A DNA stretch of 64,000 nucleotides from Lachnospiraceae bacterium (GTDB taxonomy: Bacteria; Bacillota; Clostridia; Lachnospirales; Lachnospiraceae). The notes under the pieces are model-generated. The model did no database searches, was not told the origin of the DNA, and worked only from the letters and a program-made list of their open reading frames with translations. Both the position numbers and the translations under genes were made by a program. The stretch covers positions 11,830 through 75,829 of the forward strand of contig JAGAQJ010000002.1 of NCBI GenBank assembly GCA_017622845.1, given 5' to 3'. Every line of letters starts with the position of its first letter. The stretch's first letter is position 1. Of the stretch, positions 1 through 38,611 are shown piece by piece.

Positions 1-1031
1 GACTTCGCGAGGATTTGTTGAAGATCGTGCACGCGGACGCACAGAAATACACTTCTGTTTTGTTTTGCGGCTCCGGTACCATTAATATTGACGTCTGCTT
101 AAATTCCCTGCTTCCGGCGGACAAAAAGATACTGATTGTCAATAACGGGGCTTACAGCACGCGTGCAGTGGAAATCTGCGAATATTACGGACTTCCGCAC
201 ATCAATCTGCAGTTTGCAGTAGACGAGCTTCCGGATTTGGAGCTGGTAGAGAAGACATTAAAAGAAAATCCTGATATTGCATTGGTGCACACGACACATA
301 ATGAAACCGGAACAGGCATCTTAAACCCGATTCGTGAGCTGGGTGCGCTTGCTCACAAGTACGGTGCAGTCTTTACGGTTGATACGACTTCAACCTTGGC
401 AATGCGTCCGATTGACATCGAAAAGGACAATATCGACTTTTGTATGGCATCGGCACAGAAGGGATTGATGGCGATGACAGGATTATCCTTTATCATCGGC
501 AACAGAGCAGTGATTGAGGCTTCAAAGGATTATCCGAAGCGTTCTTATTACTGCAATCTGTATCTGCAGTATCACTTTTTTGAGACAACAGGGGAGATGC
601 ACTTTACGCCTCCGGTACAGACCATCTATGCCGCGATGCAGGCATTAAAGGAATACTTTGCAGAGGGAGAAGAAGCAAAGTGGGCAAGACATACGCGTGT
701 ATTTGAAGCGATTCATAAGGGCTTGGATGAGCTGGGCTTCCGCGACGTGATTAAGCGCGAATGGCAGGCAGGGCTGGTGGTGTCAGCCATATATCCTGAT
801 GATCCGAACTGGGATTTTACAAAAGTGCATGATTATTGCTATGAGAGAGGCTTTACCATCTATCCGGGAAAGATTTCAACGACCAACACCTTCAGGCTGT
901 GCGCACTGGGGGCGATTGACGAGGAGGATATCACGGAATTTTTCAAGGTATTCCGTCAGGCGTTAGAGCAGAATCATATCGCTATTCCGGTGAGGTATTG
1001 TGACGAAAAAGGCACAGCAGGCTGCAGATAG
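1..1031 (+). CDS. phnW: 2-aminoethylphosphonate:pyruvate aminotransferase (class-V aminotransferase), 5'-truncated by the window edge
   Basis: The frame stays open from nt 3 to the stop at 1031. The TTG at 15 is only the first possible start in the track. Class-V aminotransferase blocks are present (VLFCGSGT, NNGAYSTR) with a PLP-lysine context CMASAQKGLMAMTG. It sits immediately upstream of PEP mutase and phosphonopyruvate decarboxylase. Confidence 0.8.
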   Translation, partial: LREDLLKIVHADAQKYTSVLFCGSGTINIDVCLNSLLPADKKILIVNNGAYSTRAVEICEYYGLPHINLQFAVDELPDLELVEKTLKENPDIALVHTTHNETGTGILNPIRELGALAHKYGAVFTVDTTSTLAMRPIDIEKDNIDFCMASAQKGLMAMTGLSFIIGNRAVIEASKDYPKRSYYCNLYLQYHFFETTGEMHFTPPVQTIYAAMQALKEYFAEGEEAKWARHTRVFEAIHKGLDELGFRDVIKREWQAGLVVSAIYPDDPNWDFTKVHDYCYERGFTIYPGKISTTNTFRLCALGAIDEEDITEFFKVFRQALEQNHIAIPVRYCDEKGTAGCR

Positions 1032-1164: not shown

Positions 1165-2460
1165 ATGAAAAAAGTATATGCATGTTTTTGCACAGATGTG
1201 CTTCATGAAGGGCATCTGAATATTATTCATAAGGCGAAGGCATATGGAGACGTGATTGTGGGCGTTCTGACAGATGAGGCGATGATTCGGTATAACCGTT
1301 TTCCGACCATCAGCTTTGAGGAGAGAATGCAGCTATTTGAGGCGGTTGAGGAGGTCAGTTCGGTTGTCGTGCAAAATGATATTATGTATGACAATATCAT
1401 TGCACAGATTAAGCCGGACTATGTGATTCACGGAGATAACTGGCAGAAGGGACCGGAGGCAGCGATTCGCGCGAATGTAATTGAAGTCTTAAAGCGGGAG
1501 GGCGGAGAATTAATCGAGGTTCCCTATACTTACAATGAAAATGTCAAGCGTGTGGACGAGCGCTTGAAGGAAAAACTGGCAATGCCTGAGTTTCGCAGAA
1601 AGCGGCTGAGACAGTTAATCAAGATGCGTCCGATTGTAAAAACGATTGAGGTACACAGCGGTTTAACAGGTCTGATTGCAGAAAAGACAGTTGTAGAAAA
1701 TGACGGAGAGTTTGATCAGTTTGATGCGATGTGGATTAGCTCTCTGTGCGATTCGACAGCAAAGGGCAAGCCGGATATAGAGCTTGTTGATATGACCTCG
1801 CGCTGCCGGACGATTGATGATGTGATGGAGGTTACCACAAAGCCGATTATTTTTGACGGTGACACGGGCGGATTGACCGAGCACTTTGTCTATCTGGTGC
1901 GTACGCTGGAACGAATGGGTGTGTCAGCGATTATTATTGAAGATAAGACAGGACTCAAGAAAAACTCCCTCTTTGGAACGGAAGTGGAGCAGACGCAGGA
2001 CAGCATCGAGAATTTCAGTGCAAAGATTGCAGCAGGCAAGAAGGTACAGTTGACAGACGACTTTATGATTATAGCAAGAATCGAGAGTCTGATTTTAGAG
2101 CAAGGCATGGACGATGCTTTAACCAGAGCAAGGGCATTCCGCGATGCGGGGGCTGACGGCATTATGATTCACAGCCGCAAGAAAGACCCGGCAGAAATTC
2201 TGGAGTTCTGTGATAAGTTTCGTGCAGAGGACAAGGAAACGCCGATCGTGGTGGTTCCGTCTTCGTTTAACTCTATCACGGAGGCAGAGCTGGCGGAGCA
2301 CGGGGTAAATATCGTAATCTATGCAAATCAGCTGACTAGAAGCGCCTTTCCGGCGATGGAGCAGACTGCAAAGGATATTTTGAAATATCACCGCGCGCAG
2401 GAGGTGGACAGCCGCCTGATGCCGATTAAACAGATTTTGACACTGATTGATGAATTATAA
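1165..2460 (+). CDS. pepM: Bifunctional cytidylyltransferase-like (HxGH, TagD/Fom1-type) domain fused to phosphoenolpyruvate mutase
   Basis: The N-terminal ~130 aa read MKKVYACFCTDVLHEGHLNIIHKAKAYGD, the HxGH nucleotidyltransferase signature. The C-terminal domain carries the PepM-diagnostic EDKxxxxxNS motif (IIIEDKTGLKKNS) within an isocitrate-lyase-superfamily barrel. The architecture matches Fom1 of fosfomycin biosynthesis. Confidence 0.85.
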   Translation: MKKVYACFCTDVLHEGHLNIIHKAKAYGDVIVGVLTDEAMIRYNRFPTISFEERMQLFEAVEEVSSVVVQNDIMYDNIIAQIKPDYVIHGDNWQKGPEAAIRANVIEVLKREGGELIEVPYTYNENVKRVDERLKEKLAMPEFRRKRLRQLIKMRPIVKTIEVHSGLTGLIAEKTVVENDGEFDQFDAMWISSLCDSTAKGKPDIELVDMTSRCRTIDDVMEVTTKPIIFDGDTGGLTEHFVYLVRTLERMGVSAIIIEDKTGLKKNSLFGTEVEQTQDSIENFSAKIAAGKKVQLTDDFMIIARIESLILEQGMDDALTRARAFRDAGADGIMIHSRKKDPAEILEFCDKFRAEDKETPIVVVPSSFNSITEAELAEHGVNIVIYANQLTRSAFPAMEQTAKDILKYHRAQEVDSRLMPIKQILTLIDEL

Positions 2461-2471
2461 GGAGACAATCC

Positions 2472-3170
2472 ATGGAAATAGCAATTTTGATGGCGGCAGG
2501 CTTGGGAACGCGGATGCGTCCGCTTACGGAAACAATACCAAAACCCCTTGTAAAGGTTCACGGGACCCCGATGATTGAGACAGTAATTCAAGGCTTGCTG
2601 AGAAGGAAGGTCAGCAAAATCTATGTTGTTGTGGGCTATAAAAAAGAGCAGTTTGAATACCTTACAAATAAGTATGCAAACCTTGAACTGATTGAAAATA
2701 CGGAATACGAGACAATCAACAATATTTCCTCGATTCATGCGGTGGGAGATGTGTTAGGCAGTGCAGATTGTTTTATCTGTGAAGCGGATTTGTATATCTC
2801 GGATTTGACGATTTTTGATGCAAGGCTTGAGCAGTCCTGCTATTATGGCAAGATGGTAAAGGGATATTCCGACGACTGGGTATTTGATATGGAGGGTGAC
2901 AGGATTGTCCGCGTGGGAAAAGAGGGAACCGACTGCTATAATATGGTTGGCATCTCTTATTTTCAGCAAAAGGACGCGGCGCTTATCAGAGATGCAGTCG
3001 CTTTGGAATATGGAAAAGCGGGTTATGAAGGTCTTTATTGGGACGAAATCGTAGACAAGCAGTTGGACAAGCTGAATCTCACGATATATCCGGTAGGACA
3101 GGAGCAGATTGTTGAGATTGACTCCGTAAAAGAGCTGTGTGCGGTTGACAGCAGCTACATCAACGGATAA
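2472..3170 (+). CDS. LicC/PntC-like nucleotidyltransferase (candidate phosphonate or phosphocholine cytidylyltransferase)
   Basis: The N-terminal signature is AAGLGTRMRPLTETIPKPLV (GxGTRxxPxTxxxPK) and the size is ~230 aa as in LicC. An AAGGAG RBS lies upstream. It is located between pepM and ppd. Confidence 0.75.
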   Translation: MEIAILMAAGLGTRMRPLTETIPKPLVKVHGTPMIETVIQGLLRRKVSKIYVVVGYKKEQFEYLTNKYANLELIENTEYETINNISSIHAVGDVLGSADCFICEADLYISDLTIFDARLEQSCYYGKMVKGYSDDWVFDMEGDRIVRVGKEGTDCYNMVGISYFQQKDAALIRDAVALEYGKAGYEGLYWDEIVDKQLDKLNLTIYPVGQEQIVEIDSVKELCAVDSSYING

Positions 3171-3223: not shown

Positions 3224-4345
3224 ATGCAGGTTCAGACATTAACAGACATTATCGGTGCTGATTTTTATGCGGGAGTCCCTGATTCCCAGTTAAAGGCATT
3301 GTGCAATTATTTGATGAACACCTACGGAATCGATGCACAGCATCATGTGATAGCGGCGAATGAAGGGAATTGTGCTGCGTTGGCGGCAGGCTATCATCTG
3401 GCGACCGGAAAGGTTCCTGTTGTGTATATGCAGAATTCAGGAGAGGGCAATATTATCAATCCCGTGGCGTCTCTTTTGAATGAGAAGGTATATGCTATTC
3501 CGATGATTTTTATTATCGGATGGCGGGGAGAGCCGGGAATCCATGATGAGCCGCAGCATATTTATCAAGGTGAAGTAACCTTGAAATTGTTAGAGGATAT
3601 GGATATCAAGCCTTTTGTAATCGGAAAGGACACGACAGAGGATGAAGTGCGGACTGCCATGCAGGAATTTGAGCCGTTATTGGCGGCAGGGAAAAATGTT
3701 GCGTTTGTGATTCGCAAGGGTGCGCTTTCTTACGAGGAAAAGGTGGAATACAGCAACAACAATAACATGGTTCGTGAAGAAATTATCAGGCACATTACGG
3801 CAGCTTCCGGAGAAGACCCTGTTGTCTCTACCACAGGAAAGGCAAGCAGAGAGCTTTTTGAAATCAGGGAAGCAAACGGACAGAGCCACCAGTATGATTT
3901 CCTGACAGTAGGCTCGATGGGACACAGCTCCTCCATCGCACTTGGCATCGCAGTCAATAAGCCGGAAACAACAGTATGGTGCATTGACGGGGATGGTGCA
4001 GTTTTGATGCATATGGGAGCAATGGCGGTTATCGGGGCGAACAGTCCTGAGAATCTGGTTCATGTCGTGATTAACAACAGTGCACACGAAACCGTAGGAG
4101 GAATGCCGACGGTTGCAGGAAAGACAGACTTAGTGGCGGTTGCTAAAGCGTGCGGATATCCGAATGCGGTCTGTGTGGACAGCTTTGAGGCGCTTGACAG
4201 CGCATTACAGCAGGCAAAGGAAAGCAGGCAGCTTAGCTTCATTGAGGTGAAATGCTCAATTGGCGCAAGGGATGATTTGGGCAGACCAACCACAACAGCA
4301 CGCGAAAATAAACAGAATTTTATGGAATATTTAAGACGAATTTAG
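3224..4345 (+). CDS. ppd: Phosphonopyruvate decarboxylase (ThDP-dependent)
   Basis: The ThDP-binding motif is GDGAVLMHMGAMAVIGANSPENLVHVVINNSAHE (GDG..NN). The ~370 aa size is typical of Ppd/AepY. It sits in a pepM context. Confidence 0.85.
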   Translation: MQVQTLTDIIGADFYAGVPDSQLKALCNYLMNTYGIDAQHHVIAANEGNCAALAAGYHLATGKVPVVYMQNSGEGNIINPVASLLNEKVYAIPMIFIIGWRGEPGIHDEPQHIYQGEVTLKLLEDMDIKPFVIGKDTTEDEVRTAMQEFEPLLAAGKNVAFVIRKGALSYEEKVEYSNNNNMVREEIIRHITAASGEDPVVSTTGKASRELFEIREANGQSHQYDFLTVGSMGHSSSIALGIAVNKPETTVWCIDGDGAVLMHMGAMAVIGANSPENLVHVVINNSAHETVGGMPTVAGKTDLVAVAKACGYPNAVCVDSFEALDSALQQAKESRQLSFIEVKCSIGARDDLGRPTTTARENKQNFMEYLRRI

Positions 4346-4465
4346 TTGTTATTTGCAGAAATAAGTGATATAATTCCATGGATTTGTAGATGCGGATAAG
4401 GTGGCGCGTTCATACAGGAGGGGTCATGGCGAATCAGAAGCATATGGATAAAGCGAGGGACAACA

Positions 4466-6373
4466 ATGGAAATAGTATATAAGGCTTTGGAATGGGTGAT
4501 GAATGGCTGTTATGCGCTCTGTCATAACTATGGGCTTGCGATTATCCTGTTTACCTTAGCGAGCAAAATCGTACTTTTGCCGGTTTCGGTATGGGTACAG
4601 AAAAATTCTATCAAAATGGTTAAAATGCAGCCGGAAATCAATTTTCTTACCGTAAAATATTATGGGGACAAGGATTCCATTGCAGAGGAACAGGCAAAGA
4701 TTTTTAAGCGGGAGAATTATCACCCGATGGCGTCGATTATTCCGCTGGTGATACAGCTATTGCTTTTGATGGGAGTCATAGAGGTTATCAAGCGTGGAAT
4801 TGCAAATCCTGCAATTGATATGAACTTTTTTGGTATCAACCTCAGCCTTGTGCCTTCCCGGACAGGCATTTCGCTGCTTTGGTCGCCATTGGTGGCAGGC
4901 GTTTCCGCGTGGATTCTCTGCGTTGCACAGAATGCAAGCAATGTTTTGCAGTCCGAGCAGTCAAACTGGAATAAATACGGCATGATGGCATTTTCTGTTG
5001 GATTATCACTGTATCTTGGCTGGTTTGTGTCTGTCGGGGTCGCACTATACTGGGTTGCAAGCAACCTGTTTGCTGTTGCACAGCTTTATCTTCTGAACTG
5101 GGCGATTAATCCCAAGAACTATGTAGATTATGAGGCGCTGGAGGAGAGCAAGAAGGCTCTGGAGGCGCTGGGAAATCTTGGCGGCAGAAAAAGGAGACGC
5201 TTTGGAGACCCTGATACGAAAAGGGAACGGCAGGATTACAAAAAATTCTTTTCCGTTGTCAACAAGCATCTGGTATTTTATTCGGAGGAAAGCGGATTTT
5301 ACAAGTATTATCGTGGAATCATAGAATACCTGTTAGAGAATACGAACCTGGTAATTCATTATATCACAAGCGACCCGGACGACCAGATATTTGAGCTGGC
5401 AAAGGTGCAGGATAAGATACGTCCTTATTATATTGGGGAAAAACGGCTTATTACTTTAATGATGAAAATGGACGCGGACGTTGTCGTGATGACGATGCCG
5501 GATTTGGAGAATTATCATATTAAGAGAAGCTATATCCGCAAGGATATCGAGTATATCTTTATTCCGCACAGCATGGACAGCCTGAATATGACAATGCGCA
5601 AGGGCTCTATGGACCATTATGACACGGTATTTTGCGTCGGAAAGCATCAAAAAGAGGAGATAGAAAAGACAGAGACTGCATACGGTCTTGAGAAAAAGAC
5701 CTTGGTTGACTGGGGATACTGCCTTCTTGACGATATGAGAAGGGAATATCAGGCTCTTTCCCATGAGAAGAGTACGACGAAGAAAATCCTGATTGCGCCT
5801 TCGTGGCAGCAGGACAATATCGTGGATAGCTGTCTGGAAGCGATTCTCGACAATCTGAAGGGAAAAGGCTATCAGGTTACGGTTCGTCCGCATCCCCAGC
5901 ATGTGCGGCATAAGGGCGAATTTATGGAGATGCTCAAGGAGAAGTATGCTTCTGATAAGGACGTGGAAATCCAGACAGACTTTTCCTCAAACAGTACGGT
6001 ATTTGAAGCGGATTTAATGATTACGGACTGGTCGGGAATTGCATATGAGTATGCATATACGACGCAGAAGCCGGTGCTCTTTATAAATACACCGATGAAA
6101 ATTATGAATCCTGAGTATCAGAAAATCGACACAGTACCGATTAATATTTTCCAGCGTGAGGAAATCGGCTGTGCACTCGACCTGAATGAACTGGATAAGC
6201 TCAGCGATAAGGTTGGTGAGCTGCTTGCACATAAGTCAGATTATTATGAGAAAATCGGTGAATTTGTAAAGGAATATACGTATAATCTCGGAACAAGCGG
6301 CGAGGTCGGCGCGAAATACATTATAAGTGCAGTGCAGAGAAAGATTCAGGAAAGAAAAGCACAAGGGAACTGA
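4466..6373 (+). CDS. Fusion protein: N-terminal YidC/Oxa1-type membrane insertase core and C-terminal TagB/TagF-family (CDP-glycerol-type) phosphotransferase
   Basis: Residues 1-215 match the YidC pattern (GLAIILFTLASKIVLLPVSVWVQKNSIKMVKMQPE..., NYHPMASIIPLVIQLLLL, GVALYWVASNLFAVAQ). Residues ~290-635 match TagF blocks (ILIAPSWQ, VRPHPQH, ADLMITDWSGIAYEYAYTTQKPVLFINTP). Confidence 0.7.
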   Translation: MEIVYKALEWVMNGCYALCHNYGLAIILFTLASKIVLLPVSVWVQKNSIKMVKMQPEINFLTVKYYGDKDSIAEEQAKIFKRENYHPMASIIPLVIQLLLLMGVIEVIKRGIANPAIDMNFFGINLSLVPSRTGISLLWSPLVAGVSAWILCVAQNASNVLQSEQSNWNKYGMMAFSVGLSLYLGWFVSVGVALYWVASNLFAVAQLYLLNWAINPKNYVDYEALEESKKALEALGNLGGRKRRRFGDPDTKRERQDYKKFFSVVNKHLVFYSEESGFYKYYRGIIEYLLENTNLVIHYITSDPDDQIFELAKVQDKIRPYYIGEKRLITLMMKMDADVVVMTMPDLENYHIKRSYIRKDIEYIFIPHSMDSLNMTMRKGSMDHYDTVFCVGKHQKEEIEKTETAYGLEKKTLVDWGYCLLDDMRREYQALSHEKSTTKKILIAPSWQQDNIVDSCLEAILDNLKGKGYQVTVRPHPQHVRHKGEFMEMLKEKYASDKDVEIQTDFSSNSTVFEADLMITDWSGIAYEYAYTTQKPVLFINTPMKIMNPEYQKIDTVPINIFQREEIGCALDLNELDKLSDKVGELLAHKSDYYEKIGEFVKEYTYNLGTSGEVGAKYIISAVQRKIQERKAQGN

Positions 6374-6445: not shown

Positions 6446-6721
6446 ATGAAGAAGGACATATTAAAGAAGAACATATTACGATTAGCATGTGCAGGTTATT
6501 TAGGGGCGGCAGGTATGCTGCTGTTTGGTGTCAATGCACAGGCATACATTGACCCGTCGGTTGCGACTTATGCGATTCAGGCGATTGCCGGTATTGCAAT
6601 TGCAGTTGGTGCAGCTGTTGGAATTTATTTCAGGCGTGCCAAAAAGAAGATTAATGAGAAGCTTGGCGTAGACGAAAACCGCAACAAAGAGGTTGAGTCA
6701 GATGATATTGAGATAAAATAA
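6446..6721 (+). CDS. Small exported/membrane protein (signal peptide, one TM helix, charged tail)
   Basis: I chose the internal ATG at 6446 because an AGGAAG RBS sits at 6431-6436. There is a predicted AXA cleavage site (VNAQA/YIDPS), a hydrophobic stretch AIQAIAGIAIAVGAAVGIYF, then a K/E-rich tail. I do not recognise a family. Confidence 0.45.
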   Translation: MKKDILKKNILRLACAGYLGAAGMLLFGVNAQAYIDPSVATYAIQAIAGIAIAVGAAVGIYFRRAKKKINEKLGVDENRNKEVESDDIEIK

Positions 6722-6735
6722 CAGGCAGCTTTTAT

Positions 6736-6772
6736 GCAATTCAAGTACGCGGGAGCGTACTTGAATTGTTTC
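6736..6772. terminator. Perfect 14-bp hairpin between convergent genes
   Basis: CAATTCAAGTACGC-GGGA-GCGTACTTGAATTG is followed by TTTC on the + strand. It lies between the stop at 6721 (+) and the stop at 6785 (-). The U-tract is present only for the + transcript. Confidence 0.7.
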
Positions 6773-6784
6773 ATGCATACAAGC

Positions 6785-7270
6785 TCATCGCGACGGCATC
6801 ACAGTGCCGATGATATCCTCATATTTTACAGGTCCGATGTCCGGGCAGCGGCTGTCTTTGCTTTCGCTGTAGTTGTCGCCAAGGACAAAATATTCATCTT
6901 CATGAAGCAAAAGCGGAGAAGAAGCGGTGCCTGCATACGAGATTTGGGCGTTTTCGGGCAGTACGGAGGAAGGCTCGTCATTTACATACAGGATATTTTC
7001 CTCGATAGAAACCATATCGTTTGGCTTGGCAACGACACGTTTGATCAGGGTTGTCGACAAGGTATCACTGGAAAAGACAATGACATCGCCGTAGTCAGGC
7101 TGCTTCACATGCTTGTTGATGATTACAAGCTCCAGATTATGATATGTGGGAAGCATGGAATCGCCTTGTATTAATGCAAGCTGAAAATGATATCTTGAGA
7201 GATAGCCTGTCATGAAAAGGATAGAAAGAGCAAGTATCAAATTTTTATGTTTCTGTATTATTTTCTTCAT
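6785..7270 (-). CDS. lepB: Signal peptidase I (S26 family)
   Basis: It has the catalytic Ser box GDSMLPT, the Lys box LIKRVVAKPND, and GDNYSESKDSR. A GGGAGG RBS is present on the minus strand. This is the only minus-strand gene I call in the window. Confidence 0.85.
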   Translation of the reverse strand: MKKIIQKHKNLILALSILFMTGYLSRYHFQLALIQGDSMLPTYHNLELVIINKHVKQPDYGDVIVFSSDTLSTTLIKRVVAKPNDMVSIEENILYVNDEPSSVLPENAQISYAGTASSPLLLHEDEYFVLGDNYSESKDSRCPDIGPVKYEDIIGTVMPSR

Positions 7271-7438: not shown

Positions 7439-9211
7439 ATGAAGCGCAAATGGATATTTTTATATGTCATAATAATGATTGCCTGTTCCCTTCCAATCAT
7501 GAATCATTTTCTGATACGCGGCCACGACATCTATTTTCATCTGATGCGGATAGAAGGTCTTGCGGAGGGGTTAAGGTGCGGACAGTTTCCGGTCAGAATC
7601 CAGCCGGTATGGTATGGAGATTTTGGTTATGCGGTTTCTGTTTTCTACGGTGATTTATTTGTATATTTTGCAGCGATTCTCCGATTGCTTGGCTTTTCCC
7701 TGCAGAATGCCTACAAAGGTTATCTGCTGCTCTGTAATGCGGCGACAGTCTGCATCGCAGGCTATAGCTTCGGGAAAATTTTTAAAAATGCTTATGTGGG
7801 AGTCTTTGGCAGCGCACTTTACAGTCTTGCGGTATACAGGCTGGTAAATCTGTATACACGCGGCGCCCTGGGAGAATATACAGGCATGGCATTTCTGCCT
7901 CTGATTCTCTATGCCTGCACCTTGCTGCTGGATAAGGAGCGAAAGAAAGAAAATCTGAAAAAAGGAAGTTTTCTGCTTGGCATAGGTATGGCGTTTATAC
8001 TGCAAAGCCACATTTTGACGGCAGAGCTTACCGTGCTGATGCTGTGCGGTGTGGTTTTACTGTTTGCTAAGCGCGTTTTTCGGAAGGAAGTGCTTCTAAA
8101 CGGACTGCGTGCAGTTCTGATTGCAGTGGGGCTTAGTTTGTGGTTTCTTGTGCCATTTGGCGATTATATGCTCAACGGGAGCTATCAGATTAATGCGGCG
8201 GAGAGCGAAGAACCGCTGATACAGAGAGTGGGAATTTTTTTCTCGCAGATATTTCCGCTTTTTGACAATGCAGTGGGGGAGAGCCTTGATTTGAGTGCCG
8301 GGCCACAGGGAGATTTTGCACAGGGTGTAGGTCTTGGACTGTTTCTGGCGCTTCCGGCGATTGTTATTTTGACTGCATTTTTGAATAAGAAACTATATCA
8401 GGAATCCGAATGGCGGATTGCAATTGCGGCGGCGCTGTTTGGAGGTGCGGCAGTCTGCTGCAGCACCATCTATTTTCCGTGGGATTTCTTATGCAGGATA
8501 AGCAGTGTATTGAACTATGTGATTGTCAATATTCAATTTCCGTGGAGATTTACAGGAATAGCAGCAGTGTGTCTGACCCTGCTTTGGTGCGCCCTGGTTG
8601 TCCTTATAGGCAGGCACATGGGAAGGAAGCAGGCATTGGCGGCATCGATAACGGTTGTCCTGCTCATGTCCTTGTCAGCAGGTCATTATGTTATCGATTT
8701 GCTGGAGCGGGGACAGCGTATTCAGGTCAGGACACAGTCGGATATGGACAGCTATGTGGCATCGGGTGAGGAGTATTTGCCGTTGGGAACAGAGCCGGAG
8801 GAGCTTACGCCGGAGAGCTTATTGCAGGAGGAGGGTCTGGAGATAACCCAATATCAAAAAAATGGCTCCAATGTGCAGTTTTACTGTCGGAATCATACTG
8901 ATGAAACGAAGATACTGGAGCTTCCCCTGCTGTACTATGATGGATATGAGGCATATGGAGTGTCGGAAACTGGGAAAAAGTCTGATATAAATGTAACAGC
9001 AGGGAATAATAATGCTGTAAGGCTTTTGATAGAACCGGATATGAAGGCAGAGGTCTTTGTGCATTTTAAAGAGCCGTGGTATTGGAGACTTTCGGAAGTC
9101 ATTTCATTGATGTCAGTGCTGCTTTTGGCTTCTGGGGTGCGAAACAGCAGTAATAGTTCAGCCCAGAGGTTTGCACTCGCTGCAAACCTCGTAAGAAAAC
9201 GCAGCGGCTGA
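7439..9211 (+). CDS. Polytopic membrane protein, YfhO-like / GT-C-fold glycosyltransferase candidate
   Basis: The start is taken at the ATG at 7439 (RBS AGAGGAAG). It has more than 10 predicted TM helices. The N-terminal motif is GHDIYFHLMRIEGL...FGYAVSVFYGD, as seen in YfhO-type proteins. A C-terminal ~150 aa soluble part follows. The last ~20 codons (AQRFALAANLVRKRSG) lie inside an intergenic-type repeat. Confidence 0.6.
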   Translation: MKRKWIFLYVIIMIACSLPIMNHFLIRGHDIYFHLMRIEGLAEGLRCGQFPVRIQPVWYGDFGYAVSVFYGDLFVYFAAILRLLGFSLQNAYKGYLLLCNAATVCIAGYSFGKIFKNAYVGVFGSALYSLAVYRLVNLYTRGALGEYTGMAFLPLILYACTLLLDKERKKENLKKGSFLLGIGMAFILQSHILTAELTVLMLCGVVLLFAKRVFRKEVLLNGLRAVLIAVGLSLWFLVPFGDYMLNGSYQINAAESEEPLIQRVGIFFSQIFPLFDNAVGESLDLSAGPQGDFAQGVGLGLFLALPAIVILTAFLNKKLYQESEWRIAIAAALFGGAAVCCSTIYFPWDFLCRISSVLNYVIVNIQFPWRFTGIAAVCLTLLWCALVVLIGRHMGRKQALAASITVVLLMSLSAGHYVIDLLERGQRIQVRTQSDMDSYVASGEEYLPLGTEPEELTPESLLQEEGLEITQYQKNGSNVQFYCRNHTDETKILELPLLYYDGYEAYGVSETGKKSDINVTAGNNNAVRLLIEPDMKAEVFVHFKEPWYWRLSEVISLMSVLLLASGVRNSSNSSAQRFALAANLVRKRSG

Positions 9212-13953: not shown

Positions 13954-15678
13954 ATGGGATTTCATAATAGAAATTATATAAGAGCGCTGGTAATGACAGC
14001 AATGGCGTCTGTCGTCCTTGCGATGGGAATCGTTGAGGAGACAAAAAGCAGCAATGCGAAAATCGAACAAATGCAGACAGAGGAGAGCGGCGGTCAGGAG
14101 TTTGGCTTATATGTATGGATGAATCATCAGCAGAAAATAAAGAGCTGGTACAATCAGCAGGATAACAGCTATTATCTTTTTATTCCCGGTGCAATGGAGG
14201 GAAAAAAGCTGAATCTGACGTTTCTTGGGGCGGAATCTCTTTCTATTGATGACAGGAAAGTGGGCAATGGAGACAAGTGCCGGCTGAAAGAGGGACACCA
14301 CATCATTAGAACCGGAGAGCCGCAAGACAGTAAGGCATATGATTTAGAGGTGATGTATACATCGGGAATTGCATCACTGTTTTTGGAAACGGAGTCCGGA
14401 ACGCTTAAATTTATCCATGAATCAAAGGAAAATGAGGAATCGGGCAGCATGTATATCATGGACAGCCGGGGCAGCAAGTATTATGAAGGAACGATTGAGG
14501 ATATTCATTGCCGCGGAAATTCGTCCTATGAGGATACGGACAAGAAATCTTACTCGATTAAGCTGAGCAAAAAGGCTGATTTGTTTGGAATGGGGGAGGA
14601 CAGAAAGTGGATTCTCACAGCGAATGCCTTTGACGATACCCTTCTTAGGAATACGATAGCCTTTGATATTGCCGAGTCGCTTAAGCTTGCATATACGCCT
14701 GAGACTGAGTATGCAGATGTGTGGGCAAACGGTGAATTTATCGGAAATTATCTGTTATCCGAGAAGATAGAGGTTGGGAAAAACAGAGTCAATATTGGGA
14801 ATCTTGAAGATGATACGATGGAGCTTAACGGCAGCCCTGAGCCGGAGACGCTCGAGTTTTTTATGGAACAGCAGGGAAGACTGTTCAGCACAAAAGGTTA
14901 TAAGTATGAGAAAGAGCCGGACAATACAGAAGGAGGGTATTTGCTGGAATTGGAAACAAGCGACCGGTATGGTTTGGAGGCAAGCGGATTTCTGACCTCA
15001 AGAATGCAGCCTGTCGTGTTTGCAAGCCCGAAATATGCTTCTTATGACCAAGTGTCTTATATCGCAAATCGTTATCAGGATTTTGAGGATGCAGTATTTT
15101 CCGAGGATGGCTATAGTCCATATACGGGAGCAGTTTACAGCGATTATATTGACATGGATTCCTTTGCGCGCAAGTACCTGATGGAGGAGCTTACCAAAAA
15201 TCTGGACGCTTCTTTCACAAGCCAGTACCTATATAAGTATGCAGACAGCATCAGCAGGAAGTTTTATGCAGGTCCGTGCTGGGATTATGATAAGTCAATC
15301 GCAGCGTCCGGAATAACGGAGGACGGCATTGACCTGCATGACCCGGTTGGTCTGTATGCAGCTGTTCAGAAGAAGGATTCCGATATATGGTATGCCTTAT
15401 ACCAGCATGAGGATTTCAGAAGGCTGGCTGCCAAAATCTTTTTTGAGGAGCTGGAACCGCAGCTAAGGGCAGATGCCAGAGAGCTGATTGAAGGCTATGC
15501 ATCGCTTATCAGTGCGTCCAACGACTGCAATATGATGCGGTGGAACACCTTCCCGCAGGCTGAGGAGCTGTCGGAGAAAAAAGAGCTGCATCAGGATAAG
15601 GTGGACGAGCTTGCAGAGTTTCTTGACAAACGTCTTGACTTTTTGGAGAGTGAGTGGGGAGATTTGTATAATGAGTAA
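13954..15678 (+). CDS. CotH kinase-family protein with an N-terminal signal anchor
   Basis: The CotH family block is CRGNSSYEDTDKKSYSIKLSKKADLFGMGEDRKWILTANAFDDTLLRNTIAFDIAE...WANGEFIGNYLLSEKIEV. One N-terminal TM helix is predicted (ALVMTAMASVVLAMGIV). Confidence 0.8.
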   Translation: MGFHNRNYIRALVMTAMASVVLAMGIVEETKSSNAKIEQMQTEESGGQEFGLYVWMNHQQKIKSWYNQQDNSYYLFIPGAMEGKKLNLTFLGAESLSIDDRKVGNGDKCRLKEGHHIIRTGEPQDSKAYDLEVMYTSGIASLFLETESGTLKFIHESKENEESGSMYIMDSRGSKYYEGTIEDIHCRGNSSYEDTDKKSYSIKLSKKADLFGMGEDRKWILTANAFDDTLLRNTIAFDIAESLKLAYTPETEYADVWANGEFIGNYLLSEKIEVGKNRVNIGNLEDDTMELNGSPEPETLEFFMEQQGRLFSTKGYKYEKEPDNTEGGYLLELETSDRYGLEASGFLTSRMQPVVFASPKYASYDQVSYIANRYQDFEDAVFSEDGYSPYTGAVYSDYIDMDSFARKYLMEELTKNLDASFTSQYLYKYADSISRKFYAGPCWDYDKSIAASGITEDGIDLHDPVGLYAAVQKKDSDIWYALYQHEDFRRLAAKIFFEELEPQLRADARELIEGYASLISASNDCNMMRWNTFPQAEELSEKKELHQDKVDELAEFLDKRLDFLESEWGDLYNE

Positions 15679-16357
15679 ATACAGACATGAATACAAATAC
15701 ATCTGTTCGGATACACAGCTGGTCCTGCTGAGAAACAGGCTTGAGGGGCTGATGGAATACGATAAATATGCAGGACAGGACGGAACCTATATGATTCGGA
15801 GCCTGTACTTTGACGATTACCTTGACAGCTGCCTCCGGGACAATATCAATGGTACGGACCCCAGAGAGAAATTCAGGCTTCGGCTCTATAACGGCGATGC
15901 CTCCTATATCAGACTGGAGCTGAAAAGGAAGGAACGCGGAAAGACACTCAAATCCTCCTGCAGAATCGACGAGGAATTGTGTGAAAAAATGGTACGGGGA
16001 GTTCCGCTGAAGATGGATGCGGTTGATTCAAAAGTTTACCGCAAGTTTTGTCTGATGCAGCATACCAGGCTGCTGAAGCCCAAGGTGATTGTAGAATATG
16101 ACCGTGTGCCGTATGTCTACAGGGATGGCAATGTCAGAGTCACCTTTGACAGGAATATCAGAAGCGGAGCGGCAATAGAACGCTTTATGGAAAAAAATGT
16201 GATAACAAGACCTGTCATGTCCTGTGGTCAGCATGTTTTAGAAGTGAAATTTGACGAGCTGATTCCGGATTTTATATATTCTGCCATACAGATTGAAAAG
16301 CTGCAGCAGACAACATACTCCAAATACTATATATGCCGGAAATACAGTTTAGGATAG
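15671..16357 (+). CDS. VTC-domain (polyphosphate-polymerase-like, triphosphate-tunnel) protein
   Basis: The start ATG at 15671 overlaps the cotH stop (ATGAGTAA). VTC blocks are present: YRHEYKY, YMIRSLYFDD, REKFRLRLY, IRLELKRKERGKTLK. No TM helix is predicted. Confidence 0.75.
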   Translation: MSKYRHEYKYICSDTQLVLLRNRLEGLMEYDKYAGQDGTYMIRSLYFDDYLDSCLRDNINGTDPREKFRLRLYNGDASYIRLELKRKERGKTLKSSCRIDEELCEKMVRGVPLKMDAVDSKVYRKFCLMQHTRLLKPKVIVEYDRVPYVYRDGNVRVTFDRNIRSGAAIERFMEKNVITRPVMSCGQHVLEVKFDELIPDFIYSAIQIEKLQQTTYSKYYICRKYSLG

Positions 16358-16383
16358 GAAGTACAGTTCAGGAGGAAATCAAT

Positions 16384-17058
16384 ATGAGTTTTAAGGACGT
16401 GTTAAAAAAATCATTTGTGAATAATTTCACAACAGCCGATATGACTTTTACAGAGGTGCTGTTGATACTGGCAATTACACTGCTTTTTGCGTTGTATATC
16501 TTTTTCATTTACAGGATATTAACAAGGAAAAATTTCTACAATAAAAACTTTAATATCTCGCTTGCAGCGATTGCAATGATTACTGCTGCCGTAATTATTA
16601 CGATTCAGTCAAGCATTGTCGTTTCGCTTGGTATGGTAGGCGCGCTGTCTATTGTGAGATTTCGGACGGCAGTGAAGGACCCGCTTGACCTTGTATTTAT
16701 GTTCTGGGCGTTGGCAGTCGGCATTATATGCGGTGTCGGCCTGTTTTACATTGCAGGAATACTGTCAATTCTTGTGACGATAACGATATTCATACTGGAT
16801 AAGCTTCCGGCGGCACAGGCGCCTATGATTCTGATGGTGCAGGCTGTGTACTGTGATATGGAGGGCGATATCAGCAGCGTGGTATCGGAGTTTACAAAGT
16901 ATTACAAGGTGAAATCAAGAAATATTACACCGGAGAGGACCAGCATCGTGATGGAGCTTCGGGTGAAAGACGGAGGAAGCCTCGTACAGAAATTAAGCGG
17001 CATGGACGGAGTGGAATATGTATCCATCATTGACCATGACGGGGAAGTGACATACTGA
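16384..17058 (+). CDS. DUF4956-family membrane protein
   Basis: The start ATG at 16384 follows an AGGAGGA RBS. The signature is LGMVGALSIVRFRTAVKDPLDLVFMFWALAVGIICGVG. It has 4-5 TM helices and a ~70 aa soluble C-terminus. Confidence 0.7.
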   Translation: MSFKDVLKKSFVNNFTTADMTFTEVLLILAITLLFALYIFFIYRILTRKNFYNKNFNISLAAIAMITAAVIITIQSSIVVSLGMVGALSIVRFRTAVKDPLDLVFMFWALAVGIICGVGLFYIAGILSILVTITIFILDKLPAAQAPMILMVQAVYCDMEGDISSVVSEFTKYYKVKSRNITPERTSIVMELRVKDGGSLVQKLSGMDGVEYVSIIDHDGEVTY

Positions 17059-22243: not shown

Positions 22244-23668
22244 ATGGAAAATATCAGAAGAAAAAACAAGATGATAGAGACTTACAGTGTGCTGCTGATA
22301 GATATTTTCAGTGTTGTTGTGTCATATGCACTGGCACTGTTTATAAGGTTTCGCCTGATTCATTATGAGAGCTATCCGGTGCAGTTTCACTTTATGGTCG
22401 GTGCCTATATTGTGGCGCTCTGTCTGCTGTACAATATGTTCCTGGATGCAAACAGCAACTTTTTTACCAGAGGATATTACCAGGAGTTCTATTATATTGT
22501 GCGGTATACCCTGATTCTTGTGGTCGGGTTGGTTGTGATTTTGTACCTTACGCAGCAGTCGTATGACTTTTCCCGTTCGGTCTATGTGATTTTTGCCGCA
22601 TTGAACATTGTAATTACATATGCAGCGCATATTGTGTTCAAGAAAAGCATGTGGAAATTTTACCGCAAAAGCACGAGTGCGACAAAAATGCTGGTGATAA
22701 CAAGGGACAGCATGGCGCAGGAAGTGCTTGAAAATCTGATTAAGGGCAATGAGTGGTACTATGAAGTGACTGCCGTGGCGCTCTACGATGCAGACAAAAA
22801 AGGGCAGCGTATTCAGGGGATTCCTGTGGCAGCGGGACACAGCGACTTGTATGAAACAGTGGTTCAGATGATGGTAGATGAGGTGTTTATCTGCCTGCCG
22901 GAAACTCCTGCCGCCGAGATTCGGGATATGATTCGGCAGTTTGAGGAAATGGGGCTGGTCTGCCATTATAATGTCGATTTATTCAGCAGGGACAATCCCA
23001 ATACGTATGTGCAGAAAATGGCAGGCTACAGCGTCATATCGTTTGCACTCAAAACGATGGATTCCAGGCGTCTTCTTGTGAAGCGCTGCATGGATATCAC
23101 AGGCTCTCTTGTGGGACTAGTCATTACGGCTGTGATAACACCGTTTGTGGCGCTGGCTATCAAGATTGATTCACCGGGACCTGTCTTCTTCTCACAGATA
23201 CGTATTGGAAAAAACGGCAGGCGTTTTAAAATCTGGAAGTTCCGCTCCATGTATATTGACGCGGAGGAGCGCAAAAAGGAGCTGGAGGAGCACAATGAGA
23301 TGAAAGGTCTGATGTTTAAAATGGAGGAGGACCCGCGCATCACAAAAGTAGGAAGATTTATCAGAAAGACAAGTATCGATGAGACGCCGCAGTTCTTCAA
23401 TATTTTTGTCGGCGATATGAGTCTGGTGGGAACGCGTCCGCCGACAGAGGACGAGTTCGAACAGTACAACGGCTACTACCGAAGGCGCATGAGCATCACG
23501 CCCGGACTGACAGGCATGTGGCAGGTAAGCGGCAGAAGCGATATACAGGATTTTGAGGAGATTGTGAAGCTGGACCTTGCCTACATCGACAACTGGTCTT
23601 TGGGACTTGACATCAAGATACTGTTTATGACTATATTTGCTGTTCTGGGAAAGAAAGGGTCTAAGTAG
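22244..23668 (+). CDS. Polyprenyl glycosylphosphotransferase (bacterial sugar transferase family, WbaP-like large form)
   Basis: The C-terminal catalytic domain reads SPGPVFFSQIRIGKNGRRFKIWKFRSM ... IDETPQFFNIFVGDMSLVGTRPP. The N-terminus has 4 TM helices plus a linker domain. Confidence 0.85.
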   Translation: MENIRRKNKMIETYSVLLIDIFSVVVSYALALFIRFRLIHYESYPVQFHFMVGAYIVALCLLYNMFLDANSNFFTRGYYQEFYYIVRYTLILVVGLVVILYLTQQSYDFSRSVYVIFAALNIVITYAAHIVFKKSMWKFYRKSTSATKMLVITRDSMAQEVLENLIKGNEWYYEVTAVALYDADKKGQRIQGIPVAAGHSDLYETVVQMMVDEVFICLPETPAAEIRDMIRQFEEMGLVCHYNVDLFSRDNPNTYVQKMAGYSVISFALKTMDSRRLLVKRCMDITGSLVGLVITAVITPFVALAIKIDSPGPVFFSQIRIGKNGRRFKIWKFRSMYIDAEERKKELEEHNEMKGLMFKMEEDPRITKVGRFIRKTSIDETPQFFNIFVGDMSLVGTRPPTEDEFEQYNGYYRRRMSITPGLTGMWQVSGRSDIQDFEEIVKLDLAYIDNWSLGLDIKILFMTIFAVLGKKGSK

Positions 23669-23683
23669 CAGTTGGATATAAGG

Positions 23684-23713
23684 TTGACGCAATTGCCGCA
23701 TCGGTGTTATAAT
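23684..23713 (+). promoter_or_regulatory. Candidate internal promoter with extended -10 (TTGACG-18 nt, ending in the TGn dinucleotide-TATAAT)
   Basis: TTGACG lies at 23684-23689 and TGTTATAAT at 23705-23713. The implied transcript start at ~23720 makes the ATG at 23739 a plausible alternative start for the next gene. Confidence 0.45.
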
Positions 23714-23726
23714 CGCTTATTGAAGG

Positions 23727-24497
23727 ATGACATATAGGATGGAAGATTTACAATACTGTACAATATTAAAGACAAGGATTAATGTGACCAGTATGCAGGA
23801 TACACTGGCGTATATTGATGCCCATCTTGACGAGCTGAGGGGCAGATACATCTGTGTGTCCAATGTACACACGACAGTGATGTCTTATGAAAATGAGCGT
23901 TACAGAGCCGTGCAAAATGGTGCGGCGATGGCGCTTCCTGACGGTGCGCCGCTGTCCAAGTACAGCAGAATGAAGGGATTTGCGGGCGCGCAGCGTGTGA
24001 CAGGTCCCGATTTGATGACAGAGCTGTTCAGGATTTCCGGTCAAAAGGGGTACAGGCATTTTTTTTATGGTTCTACGCAGGAAACGCTTGACGGCATGAA
24101 GGCAGCGCTCGCTCAGAATTATCCGGGCGCGGCGGTGGCAGGAATGTATGCTCCGCCGTTTCGGCCGCTTACAGAGGAAGAGGATCAAAAGATAATAGAA
24201 CAGATCAATCAGACAAAGCCGGACTTTATATGGGTGGGGCTTGGCGCTCCGAAGCAGGAGGAGTGGATGGCTGCCCATCAGGGGAAGCTGAATGCGCCTG
24301 CGGTAGGCGTGGGAGCCGGATTTGATTATCTTGCCGGAAATATTAAGAGAGCGCCGCGGTTTATGCAGGTACTCTGCCTGGAATGGCTGTACAGGCTTCT
24401 TCAGGACCCGAAGCGCTTATGGAAACGGTATGTGACGACCAATTTGAAATTTATCAAATATATTTTAAAAGAGGAAAGAAATAAAAAAAAGGGATAG
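23727..24497 (+). CDS. tagA: WecB/TagA/CpsF-family glycosyltransferase (GT26)
   Basis: Blocks are ALPDGAPL, GPDLMTELF, HFFYGSTQETL, PDFIWVGLGAPKQEEWM, VGVGAGFDYLAGNIKRAP and LEWLYRLLQDPKRLWKRY. The start is ambiguous (23727 or 23739). Confidence 0.8.
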   Translation: MTYRMEDLQYCTILKTRINVTSMQDTLAYIDAHLDELRGRYICVSNVHTTVMSYENERYRAVQNGAAMALPDGAPLSKYSRMKGFAGAQRVTGPDLMTELFRISGQKGYRHFFYGSTQETLDGMKAALAQNYPGAAVAGMYAPPFRPLTEEEDQKIIEQINQTKPDFIWVGLGAPKQEEWMAAHQGKLNAPAVGVGAGFDYLAGNIKRAPRFMQVLCLEWLYRLLQDPKRLWKRYVTTNLKFIKYILKEERNKKKG

Positions 24498-34536: not shown

Positions 34537-34695
34537 TAGAAATCATTCCAATACAGGGAACGTCAATGCCGTTAAGGCAGGGGCGTTCCCGCTTTGGCGT
34601 AAAATAATAAACGAATAACAAAATACAGACAGCGGCTGTCCGGTATGACGATTCTCAGAACAAAAGAACCCGGATAGCCGGGATGGAGGGTGAAA

Positions 34696-36862: not shown

Positions 36863-36921
36863 CCTTGCGGAAATGATATGGAAGGAATTTAGAGAAAGGA
36901 ATTAGAAAGGATTTAAGAAAA

Positions 36922-38486: not shown

Positions 38487-38499
38487 TAGTGGTTGAGAA

Positions 38500-38590
38500 G
38501 TCTCAAGCCAGGATACGTGGATTTGATGCCGCGAAGCGGTCTGGCGTGGCTTGGGGTCTGTAACAGGAAGCCGCATGGCTGAATTGTTAC
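38500..38590 (+). repeat. Composite hairpin repeat (modules 2+3) between the permease and ATPase genes
   Basis: The outer stem is TCTCAAGCCA/TGGCTTGGGG, enclosing CCGC-GAA-GCGG. It is followed by GTAACAGGAAGCCGCATGGCTGAATTGTTAC. Base pairs are compensated relative to the copy at 9214-9285. Confidence 0.75.
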
Positions 38591-38611
38591 GTTTCAATAA
38601 TGGAGAAATGT

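Follow-up and report, generated by a model that had tools for sequence, protein, structure and literature searches.

A YidC-TagF fusion protein as candidate platform of an envelope-decoration machine in gut Bacillota and Saccharibacteria

In the three-component glycosylation systems (GtrB/CsbB, GtrA/GtcA and GtrC/YfhO), the cargo is loaded on a lipid inside the cell, flipped and then transferred outside. GacH decorates a rhamnose polysaccharide from the outside, and enzymes of the TagF family act at the membrane surface on lipid-linked acceptors. In the Dlt system, the microprotein DltX carries D-alanine from DltB to DltD; depending on the system it is a protein by itself or part of a fusion (PMC12148441). 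In the case of 2-aminoethylphosphonate (AEP), the Fom1-type fusion class of cytidylyltransferase and phosphoenolpyruvate (PEP) mutase and the biochemistry of PntC have been described, with the cytidine monophosphate (CMP) conjugate CMP-AEP as the activated form and the downstream transferase explicitly left open (PMC6697681). In Clostridioides difficile, the flagellin type A cluster cd0240-cd0244 adds an N-methylthreonine-phosphate to N-acetylglucosamine (GlcNAc), and AEP is found on the same glycan as well (PMC8861647). Here we describe a 64-kb window (the whole analysed stretch of 64,000 nucleotides, from contig JAGAQJ010000002.1 of a Lachnospiraceae bacterium), in which a single open reading frame (ORF) encodes a YidC/Oxa1-like insertase core fused to a TagF-like phosphotransferase domain.

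We propose that this fusion is the platform subunit of a conserved envelope-decoration machine that relays head groups from the cytoplasm to the surface, a reading to which we assign a probability of about 45%. The probable task of the gene set as a whole is to decorate the cell surface with small phosphate or phosphonate groups that bear an amine. What is new here is the fusion architecture together with the conserved gene set, the parts being members of known families. Beyond the first-pass annotation of this DNA, which had dealt with the fusion and the phosphonate genes ahead of it, the decisive context turned out to be a universally linked microprotein, together with LtaS-like ectoenzymes, which some genomes fuse to the protein, and a dedicated signal peptidase.

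Architecture and distribution of the fusion

Both domains of the fusion score above the curated cut-offs. Pfam 60KD_IMP matches residues 22-211 (E=1.1e-29, 104 bits, cut-off 35) and Glyphos_transf matches residues 265-602 (E=2.8e-12, 46.7 bits, cut-off 22.1) over positions 11-347 of its 367; in addition, NCBIfam TIGR03592 (yidC_oxa1_cterm) gives 97.1 bits against a cut-off of 84.3. The AlphaFold2 model, calculated from an alignment of 26 orthologues with a mean predicted local distance difference test (pLDDT) score of 78.5, consists of five transmembrane (TM) helices, a cytoplasmic helical hairpin, a disordered basic linker and a two-Rossmann domain. Pfam, NCBIfam and fold matches agree on what the first-pass annotation had read from the letters, namely a YidC core with five TM helices and a TagF domain in one 635-residue ORF. 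The motif blocks that it quoted are all present, except that the one given as NP..IIPLVIQ reads HPMASIIPLVIQ. Judged from its sequence, the fusion is a genuine bifunctional membrane protein, each domain of which is a bona fide member of its own superfamily.

The helices of the YidC core lie at residues 22-36, 38-64/69-82 (the hairpin), 87-112, 139-158, 167-187 and 190-214. Foldseek search with this part revealed the YidC of Bacillus halodurans (PDB 3wo6 and 3wo7), with a TM-score of 0.70-0.73 on the target and a root-mean-square deviation (RMSD) of ~3.4 Å, and YidC chains of the PDB match the fusion at E=8e-10. The groove position is taken by Lys34 (nt 4565-4567), which aligns with the TM1 arginine of the B. 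halodurans motif ILIRLALLP and with the arginine of the Escherichia coli motif FIVRGIMYP, residues that we take to be R72 and R366, respectively. In the 73 orthologues aligned, this position is lysine in 71 and arginine in one, and distant members (34-47% identity) likewise possess lysine or arginine. By alignment, Lys34 appears as a conservative replacement of the canonical groove arginine that keeps the positive charge; the first-pass annotation had looked to a conserved Arg here. Five polar residues (Q97, N156, Q162, Q165 and N200) are invariant in all 73 orthologues and Q155 is kept in 71. The mean pairwise identity amounts to 65% for the YidC core, with 77% in TM1 and 71% in the hairpin, compared to 61% for the TagF-like domain, a conservation pattern unlike that of a decayed anchor. 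The second idea of the first-pass annotation, that the YidC groove may have been co-opted for a membrane-embedded substrate, gains indirect support.

The basic linker between the two domains is the region of lowest conservation (mean pairwise identity 54%), with its length kept, and has a pLDDT below 50 at residues 236-243. It puts the TagF-like domain in the cytoplasm, because the topology of YidC is N-out and C-in. Foldseek search with the C-terminal part revealed enzymes of the glycosyltransferase-B (GT-B) fold at a probability of 1.00, the top match being the TagF-like capsule polymerase 8a0m. A single-sequence search of this domain against PDB sequences returned noise, for the most part chains of T-cell receptors; a profile built from the domain together with stand-alone relatives matches Staphylococcus aureus TarL (8va1) at E=5.3e-7, with the aligned blocks APsW/APTF, RpHP/KMHP and itDwSgialEyA/ISDYSSLIYEYA. 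The invariant residues are K353, R354, H368, APS444-446, RPHP474-477, DWS521-523 and E528. Among them, His368 is identical in 20 fused and 33 stand-alone relatives and sits in the N-terminal subdomain, which is without residue-level alignment to a solved enzyme. The general base in the corresponding subdomain of Staphylococcus epidermidis TagF is presumably His444; H368 might, with some doubt, be the catalytic base here.

A full-length fusion is encoded by at least 148 species-level genomes (one genome per species scanned), and both domains are present in all of the 120 best clusters listed, at 73-100% identity. The carriers belong to Lachnospiraceae (among cultured ones Lachnospira eligens, Waltera and strain COE1), Oscillospiraceae, Ruminococcus, Solobacterium/Erysipelotrichaceae, Bacilli and Candidatus Saccharibacteria/Nanosyncoccus. 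For comparison, 80 species-level genomes with full-length orthologues of 49-86% identity were kept, cultured isolates included; ORFs of these 80 related loci were called and clustered, and the cluster representatives were annotated. Counts out of 81 include the window. A search for plasmid carriage of the fusion matched ordinary YidC genes only. In databases the fusion proteins are named either "YidC/Oxa1 family membrane protein insertase" or "CDP-glycerol glycerophosphotransferase family protein". Full-text literature searches on the fusion, on YidC with TagF or LtaS and on a CMP-AEP transferase found no relevant paper, which accords with the remark in the first-pass annotation that no characterised enzyme of this architecture was known to it.

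Some members of the family depart from the layout in the window. A subgroup of ~690-737 residues (P0124, P0132, P0134 and similar; loci L022-L032 and L043-L080) differs in the extracellular loop that joins TM2 to TM3 in the YidC core, where ~65 residues are inserted. A contig titled Paludibacteraceae (L013, CAVGED010000123.1) contains a 73%-identical fusion inside a 1257-residue ORF; its place in a Bacteroidota-labelled bin is due either to mis-binning or to recent transfer. In Saccharibacteria/Nanosyncoccus (L042, L044, L045, L049, L052, L053, L055, L056, L061 and L070), a fusion of ~55-60% identity is accompanied by a leaderless microprotein, TagGH-like ABC transporter genes and a donor cassette of its own, a finding that suggests horizontal transfer between these epibionts with reduced genomes and the Bacillota of the gut.

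Linked genes and donor cassettes

The fusion gene is followed, almost always 0-50 bp downstream, by a gene for a microprotein. A hidden Markov model of the microprotein family matches 76 of the 80 related loci, and of the four loci without a match, two lie on contigs that stop at the fusion gene; the microprotein is the constant partner of the fusion. In L081-L083 it is called with 91 residues, as in the window. The conserved core of the family reads YIDPSVxTYAIQAxAGxxIAxGAxxGIYxRKAKKK...KLGIDENKNKEVESDDI, in which Y, D, P, S, Y, Q, G, A, R, K and E do not vary among 27 diverse microproteins, the most conserved part being the extracellular motif YIDPSVxTY. Two forms occur: the first has a signal peptide ending in A-x-A right before YIDPS, the layout of M13 procoat, and the second has no leader and starts 4-15 residues ahead of YIDPS, the layout of Pf3 coat. 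In both cases the mature microprotein is predicted to be an N-out single-pass helix starting at YIDPS, similar to these two coat proteins. Of the 46 leader-bearing microproteins, 28 have a gene for signal peptidase I in their locus, compared with none of the 31 leaderless ones (Fisher p=4e-9); the one in the window scores 104.9 bits on TIGR02227 (cut-off 47). For a possible insertase activity of the YidC core, the linked microprotein is a plausible substrate by its architecture. The plus-strand ORF 6734..7174 (146 residues) belongs to no family and was discarded as spurious, the signal peptidase on the minus strand being the real gene.

A phage origin of the microprotein was considered and rejected. 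The microprotein of the window has no match to the inovirus coat B family (PF05356) at E<=0.01, and Phage_Coat_B matches in the family are sporadic and weak, found in 5 of the 27 microproteins with a best E-value of 2.3e-5 and one score of 20.7 bits against a cut-off of 23.5. The tblastn search against 50,697 phage records gave one match, a misfiled bacterial contig. This 5.3-kb record (GenBank MT838376.1, L084), filed as "UNVERIFIED: Bacteriophage sp.", carries a fusion of 63% identity, a microprotein and two LtaS-like genes. Two microprotein relatives, P0346 and P0359, have a precomputed Pfam match to Phage_Coat_B, and the latter is named "major capsid protein" by NCBI; the match is probably a compositional false positive that spreads a wrong name. 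Elsewhere in databases the microproteins are called "hypothetical" or, wrongly again, "major capsid protein".

LtaS-like ectoenzymes are encoded in 56 of the 81 loci, often in two or three copies. Those of the related loci match Pfam Sulfatase at 40.6 bits (cut-off 25), and their profile is closest to the solved S. aureus LtaS (2w5q, E=8.5e-7), with the H..H.P and DHG motifs aligned. Residues D218, H401, H406, D457 and H458 are invariant and T255 is nearly so; four strong TM segments are predicted within residues 26-185, together with an extracellular domain of Sulfatase fold. In some genomes the partners are joined in one polypeptide. Proteins P0121, P0131 and P0138 have the order Sulfatase-YidC-TagF, and P0122 and P0137 the order YidC-TagF-Sulfatase, in which a module with A-x-A directly before YIDPS lies between the TagF-like and LtaS-like parts. 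This YidC-TagF-YIDPS-LtaS order within a single protein is the same as the gene order seen elsewhere. In ~11 loci, moreover, the microprotein forms the N-terminus of the LtaS-like protein. The topologies predicted for the parts agree with one another, with the TagF-like domain inside, YIDPS outside, the basic cluster inside and the LtaS-like domain outside. In the compact module of Solobacterium, the fusion and a microprotein-LtaS-like protein are accompanied by a BCCT choline transporter, LicC-LicA and an NTP transferase; there is no LicD, glycosyltransferase or other flippase among the module genes.

The four genes that adjoin the fusion upstream bear out the first-pass annotation, which had placed it directly behind genes forming a CMP-phosphonate. 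The second of these scores 408.8 bits on the PEP_mutase model TIGR02320 (cut-off 319.55), and the product of the third, which belongs to a neighbourhood cluster of 24 loci (cluster 4), likely makes CMP-AEP. By sequence, the four genes correspond to the known route from PEP via phosphonopyruvate, phosphonoacetaldehyde and AEP to CMP-AEP, which would be the obvious donor for the TagF-like domain in this window. The first gene, the class-V aminotransferase, has a full length of 384 residues in the parent contig (L081). A gap of 120 nt precedes the fusion gene, with a promoter-like site inside. The cassette contains two cytidylyltransferase-type enzymes, the Fom1-like domain on the PEP mutase and the separate LicC/PntC-like protein; choline cassettes elsewhere also have a second nucleotidyltransferase besides LicC-LicA.

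Across genomes the link with phosphonates, on which the first-pass annotation had staked its interpretation, largely did not hold up. The annotation had named AEP (or glycerol-P) as the cargo of one reading and had asked whether the fusion co-occurs with pepM; a tblastn search with the AEP genes of the window located PepM/Ppd within ~10 kb in 7 of the 80 related loci, or in 8 of 81 with the window counted, and a family-wide linkage to pepM was rejected. As to the proposed transfer of AEP by the TagF domain, CMP-AEP stands as the donor expected at this locus, and specificity for phosphonates falls. The AEP-linked fusions are scattered through the family, and the closest orthologues (L001/L002, 86% identity) have a CobD-type cassette next to them, which argues for a transferase platform with exchangeable donor cassettes. 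From gene context, the fusion looks like a generic platform rather than a phosphonate-specific enzyme. In 16 loci the cassette has a CobD-like threonine-phosphate decarboxylase fused to a nucleotidyltransferase, in 8 loci a BCCT choline transporter goes with LicC-LicA, and in Saccharibacteria an aminotransferase is combined with a cytidylyltransferase-oxidoreductase. Together with the AEP genes, these point to small amine-bearing phosphates or phosphonates activated on a cytidine nucleotide. Two further kinds, a class-V aminotransferase with a DUF2284 protein and a nucleotidyltransferase, and a cassette with a methyltransferase, have a donor chemistry that is not readable from the annotations of DUF2284 and the methyltransferase.

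No LicD domain (PF04991) was detected in the ORF, in the scanned genes of the window or in the Pfam-annotated parent contig, and no stand-alone tagD-like gene was seen beside the fusion. The gene context points to AEP, choline and CobD-like products as donors, not to cytidine diphosphate (CDP)-glycerol or CDP-ribitol. Single transfers are expected, because choline and AEP are not polymerisable.

The proposed relay and its alternatives

In the proposed relay, the TagF-like domain would take a CMP- or CDP-activated aminoalkyl phosphate or phosphonate, here CMP-AEP supplied by the four upstream genes, and pass the head group on at the inner face, where the membrane-embedded acceptor would most likely be a lipid or a lipid-linked glycan. 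The YidC-like groove would then move or present the loaded head group across the bilayer, with the helix of the microprotein docked in or next to the groove and its invariant Asp36 facing Lys34. Outside, a transferase of alkaline-phosphatase fold, LtaS-like in most genomes, would hand the head group to a wall polymer. In this genome, the GT-C-like product of 7439..9211 or an unlinked gene may replace the LtaS-like enzyme, and the target would likely be a rhamnose-type polysaccharide or a teichoic-acid-like polymer encoded further along the window.

Some intermediate must cross the bilayer in such a scheme, because the donor is cytoplasmic and the catalytic domain of the LtaS-like enzyme is outside; within the compact modules, which otherwise encode choline uptake and activation and the LtaS-like protein, the YidC-like core with the microprotein is the sole candidate for this crossing. 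The relay fits with the lipid scrambling that has been reported for YidC-type insertases, by way of the same groove (10.1101/2023.09.01.555937, PMC11997395). A stronger version of the relay holds that the YidC fold itself serves as a trans-bilayer passage for head groups, its groove holding the coat-protein-like microprotein while the TagF-like domain loads and the LtaS-like enzyme unloads; the cargo may ride either on a lipid or on the microprotein. We regard this version as tentative and, on present evidence, somewhat unlikely.

Several points weigh against the relay. An LtaS-like gene was found neither in the 64-kb window by tblastn with 12 family members nor within 10 kb upstream in the parent contig L081, which leaves the third step of the relay unsupported for this genome, and 3 of the other 7 pepM-linked loci also go without one. 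A recognisable donor cassette is missing near the fusion in 37 of the 81 loci, the window being counted among the 81. The residue-level alignment of the TagF-like domain to a solved enzyme covers the C-terminal subdomain only. The passage through the groove is argued by elimination and analogy, and all members of the family are known from their genes alone.

The best surviving alternative separates decoration from insertion. Here the TagF-like domain would add AEP or phosphocholine inside the cell to an undecaprenyl-linked glycan precursor in the manner of LicD, the polymer would be exported by the usual ABC or Wzx route, and the YidC core would insert the microprotein and help to assemble the LtaS-like partner without moving any head group. 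The microprotein indeed has the exact architecture of the classical YidC-only substrates, in both a leaderless form and a form with leader and signal peptidase. Substrates are captured by the charge in the YidC groove, an established mechanism that fits the groove lysine and the invariant aspartate in the translocated tail of the microprotein. The Wzm/Wzt exporter and the TagA/WecG-family transferase of the window would further offer a lipid-linked acceptor and a conventional export route, and the lack of an LtaS-like gene in this window suits it as well. This explanation, however, gives no role to the LtaS-like ectoenzymes, which are fused in several lineages and multiplied in others, and leaves it unexplained why a transferase-fused insertase should be kept for a microprotein with an invariant extracellular motif; nor does it account for the compact modules that have neither an exporter nor genes to build an acceptor. 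We hold it to be unlikely, while ranking it first among the alternatives.

Less probable again is a covalent shuttle similar to that of Dlt, in which the head group would be carried on the hydroxyl of Tyr34, Ser38, Thr41 or Tyr42 in YIDPSVxTY, the YidC groove would present the loaded microprotein outside and the LtaS-like enzyme would move the head group to the polymer. The invariance of Y, D, P, S, Y and Q of the extracellular motif in the 27 diverse microproteins and the universal linkage of the microprotein would be expected of such a carrier. The microprotein also occurs free or fused to the outer enzyme, as the DltX motif of related systems occurs free or fused to MBOAT (PMC12148441). The difficulty lies in the topology: the active site of the TagF-like enzyme is in a soluble cytoplasmic domain, whereas the motif ends up outside. 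Repeated re-entry of the N-terminal tail is without precedent, and a single loading of each molecule before insertion would be very costly. Taken together, we consider this shuttle improbable.

A very improbable reading takes the YidC core as a functionless tether, which would hold a TagF-like transferase of AEP or glycerol-phosphate at the membrane in place of the amphipathic helices that TagF has, the recruited membrane anchor of the first-pass annotation. Any fused membrane domain would place a TagF-family enzyme at the membrane, which gives the idea some appeal. The YidC part, however, is more conserved than the enzyme part (65% versus 61%) and scores above the curated YidC cut-offs, and it has kept the groove charge, with Lys or Arg essentially invariant, as well as six polar intramembrane residues and the cytoplasmic hairpin; moreover, it has co-evolved with a microprotein resembling a YidC substrate. 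Finally, the joining of two adjacent genes by a sequencing, assembly or frameshift error, a point that the first-pass annotation had raised, is ruled out for practical purposes, as the same continuous ORF with an identical protein is found on 7 independent contigs from several samples, full-length orthologues exist in 80 species-level genomes with cultured isolates among them, and the linker retains its length at 54% mean identity.

With the head-group relay as the preferred reading, the fusion becomes a concrete and testable candidate for the step after CMP-AEP in the phosphonate surface tailoring of Bacillota. A conserved four-module system, carried by lineages that are common in gut and rumen (Lachnospira eligens, Waltera, Oscillospiraceae, Solobacterium and Saccharibacteria), is hidden at present by annotation as "YidC insertase", "hypothetical protein" or even "major capsid protein". 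Phosphocholine, AEP and other zwitterionic groups on the surface shape the recognition of commensals by the host, and a platform with swappable donors, if true, would explain strain-level variation. A YidC paralogue with an apparent substrate and signal peptidase of its own also bears on the claim that insertase grooves move lipids. Should the passage of head groups through the YidC fold be true, it would represent a third route of envelope decoration in Gram-positive bacteria and Saccharibacteria beside the Gtr-type and Dlt-type ones, supply the missing CMP-AEP transferase step and place a YidC fold outside general membrane-protein biogenesis.

Locus context and comparison with known systems

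The features in and around the fusion gene are listed in Table 1. The window appears to be a wall-polymer region. The intervals 22244..24497 and 33460..39979 contain a Bac_transf initiating transferase, a TagA/WecG-family transferase, rmlA/rmlC-type genes, an enzyme of GDP-mannose-dehydratase fold and a Wzm/Wzt (Wzt_C) ABC exporter, and the window also encodes glycosyltransferases. The genes of the two intervals, taken as a set, suggest a pathway for a wall polysaccharide of rhamnose type, a possible source of the acceptor. The polytopic membrane protein encoded at 7439..9211 (604 residues if read from 7397) belongs to no curated family and has nine hydrophobic segments and a weak match to Pfam PTPS_related (22.9 bits, under the cut-off of 26.4); no relative of it was found in the 80 loci, and it is possibly an extracytoplasmic transferase of this particular locus.

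Table 1. Positions of the fusion gene, its domains and its neighbours in the window
Feature	Position	Strand	Remarks
Class-V aminotransferase (AEP transaminase-like)	15..1031	+	Aminotran_5 E=2.7e-29; 5' end cut by window edge
Cytidylyltransferase-like + PEP mutase (Fom1-type fusion), C-P bond forming	1165..2460	+	CTP_transf_like, PEP_mutase
LicC/PntC-like nucleotidyltransferase	2472..3170	+	NTP_transferase, NTP_transf_3
Phosphonopyruvate decarboxylase-type thiamine pyrophosphate (TPP) enzyme	3224..4345	+	TPP_enzyme_N, TPP_enzyme_C
Promoter-like site TTGTTA-17-TATAAT, TG upstream	4346..4374	+	10/12 consensus matches; consensus match alone
YidC-TagF fusion gene	4466..6373	+	635 aa, ATG start, no interruption
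YidC/Oxa1-like five-TM core with cytoplasmic hairpin	4466..5110	+	aa 1-215
Basic linker (...GGRKRRRFGDPDTKRERQDYKK...)	5111..5251	+	aa 216-262, low confidence
TagF/TarL-family GT-B phosphotransferase domain	5252..6373	+	aa 263-635
Microprotein	6446..6721	+	91 aa; signal peptide ending AQA, YIDPSVATYAIQ, one TM helix, RRAKKK, tail KLGVDENRNKEVESDDIEIK
Dedicated signal peptidase I	6785..7270	-	161 aa; Peptidase_S26 E=6.3e-28; convergent with microprotein gene
GT-C-like polytopic membrane protein	7439..9211	+	590 aa; gene called at 590 aa in L081

Other parts of the region stand further from the fusion. Directly after glycosyltransferase genes, a CotH kinase-like, a VTC-domain and a DUF4956 protein are encoded in a row (13954..17058) and look like a polyphosphate-related trio in a wall-polymer locus. 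A 1127-residue muramidase of glycoside hydrolase family 25 (GH25) with Big_2 domains and a choline-binding repeat (29600..32983) could dock onto the aminoalkyl-phosphate- or phosphonate-decorated wall polymer of the neighbouring genes. Upstream of the AEP genes, positions 1..5358 of L081 harbor heptose-pathway-like genes (SIS, HAD phosphatase), a family-9 glycosyltransferase of the heptosyltransferase family, a DUF6311 protein and a GtrII protein, a content unusual for Lachnospiraceae.

Compared with insertases of the YidC2/SpoIIIJ type (PF02096, TIGR03592), the YidC part of the fusion is ~24-28% identical and shares the five-TM core, the hairpin, the polar groove with a TM1 charge and the basic C-terminal stretch. 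It differs in lacking a lipoprotein signal, in having lysine instead of arginine in the groove and in carrying an additional catalytic domain of 370 residues, and its genes belong to envelope-decoration loci that also encode a signal peptidase and a substrate-like microprotein of its own.

The TagF-like domain resembles TagF, TagB, TarF and TarL (PF04464) in its Pfam match, GT-B fold and APSW, RPHP and DWS..E motifs, and as a cytoplasmic enzyme at the membrane that uses nucleotide-activated phospho-donors. It is, however, very divergent, with no single-sequence match to a solved TagF-family enzyme, and is fused to an integral YidC core, whereas the known enzymes are peripheral; by gene context its donors would be amino-alcohol phosphates or phosphonates (AEP, choline and others) rather than CDP-glycerol or CDP-ribitol. 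The C. difficile protein cd0244, which we take to be annotated as a TagF-family glycerophosphotransferase, is soluble, has a likewise putative function and goes without a YidC core, microprotein or LtaS-like partner.

Similar to the Lic (LicA, LicC and LicD) and Pnt (PntC) pathways, the locus involves cytidylyl activation of a small zwitterionic head group that is meant for glycans of the surface; the genes ahead of the fusion would make CMP-AEP, and other loci carry LicA/LicC. In contrast to Lic, the locus has no LicD-family transferase, for which the TagF-like domain on a YidC core is the candidate, and the system includes an LtaS-like outer step that the Lic pathway lacks.

With the Dlt system it has in common a cytoplasmic activation, a polytopic membrane protein, an outer transferase and a microprotein with an invariant extracellular motif. 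The families are unrelated (MBOAT, SGNH and a carrier protein in Dlt), the transfer would be phosphoryl rather than acyl, and the motif is C-terminal in DltX but N-terminal in the YIDPS microprotein. The Gtr-type systems, for their part, offer the load-flip-transfer scheme, outer enzymes that are multiplied or exchanged between strains, and GT-C genes, which are abundant in fusion loci; they differ in the fold at every step, in a sugar instead of a phosphate or phosphonate cargo, and in that the loader and the presumed flipper are here one polypeptide. The families that define Dlt (MBOAT, SGNH and DltX with FxYxxF) and Gtr (GT2, GtrA and GT-C with one cargo) do not make up the set described here, and the logic alone is alike.

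At the outer face, the partners resemble enzymes of the GacH/LtaS/EptA type in their N-terminal TM bundle, extracellular Sulfatase fold, metal-binding and His/Asp motifs and near-invariant threonine. The known enzymes of this type draw on bulk phospholipids, namely phosphatidylglycerol (PG) and phosphatidylethanolamine (PE); the partner described here, in contrast, is genetically tied to a CDP/CMP-dependent transferase of the cytoplasm, and this tie implies that its donor is a dedicated one.

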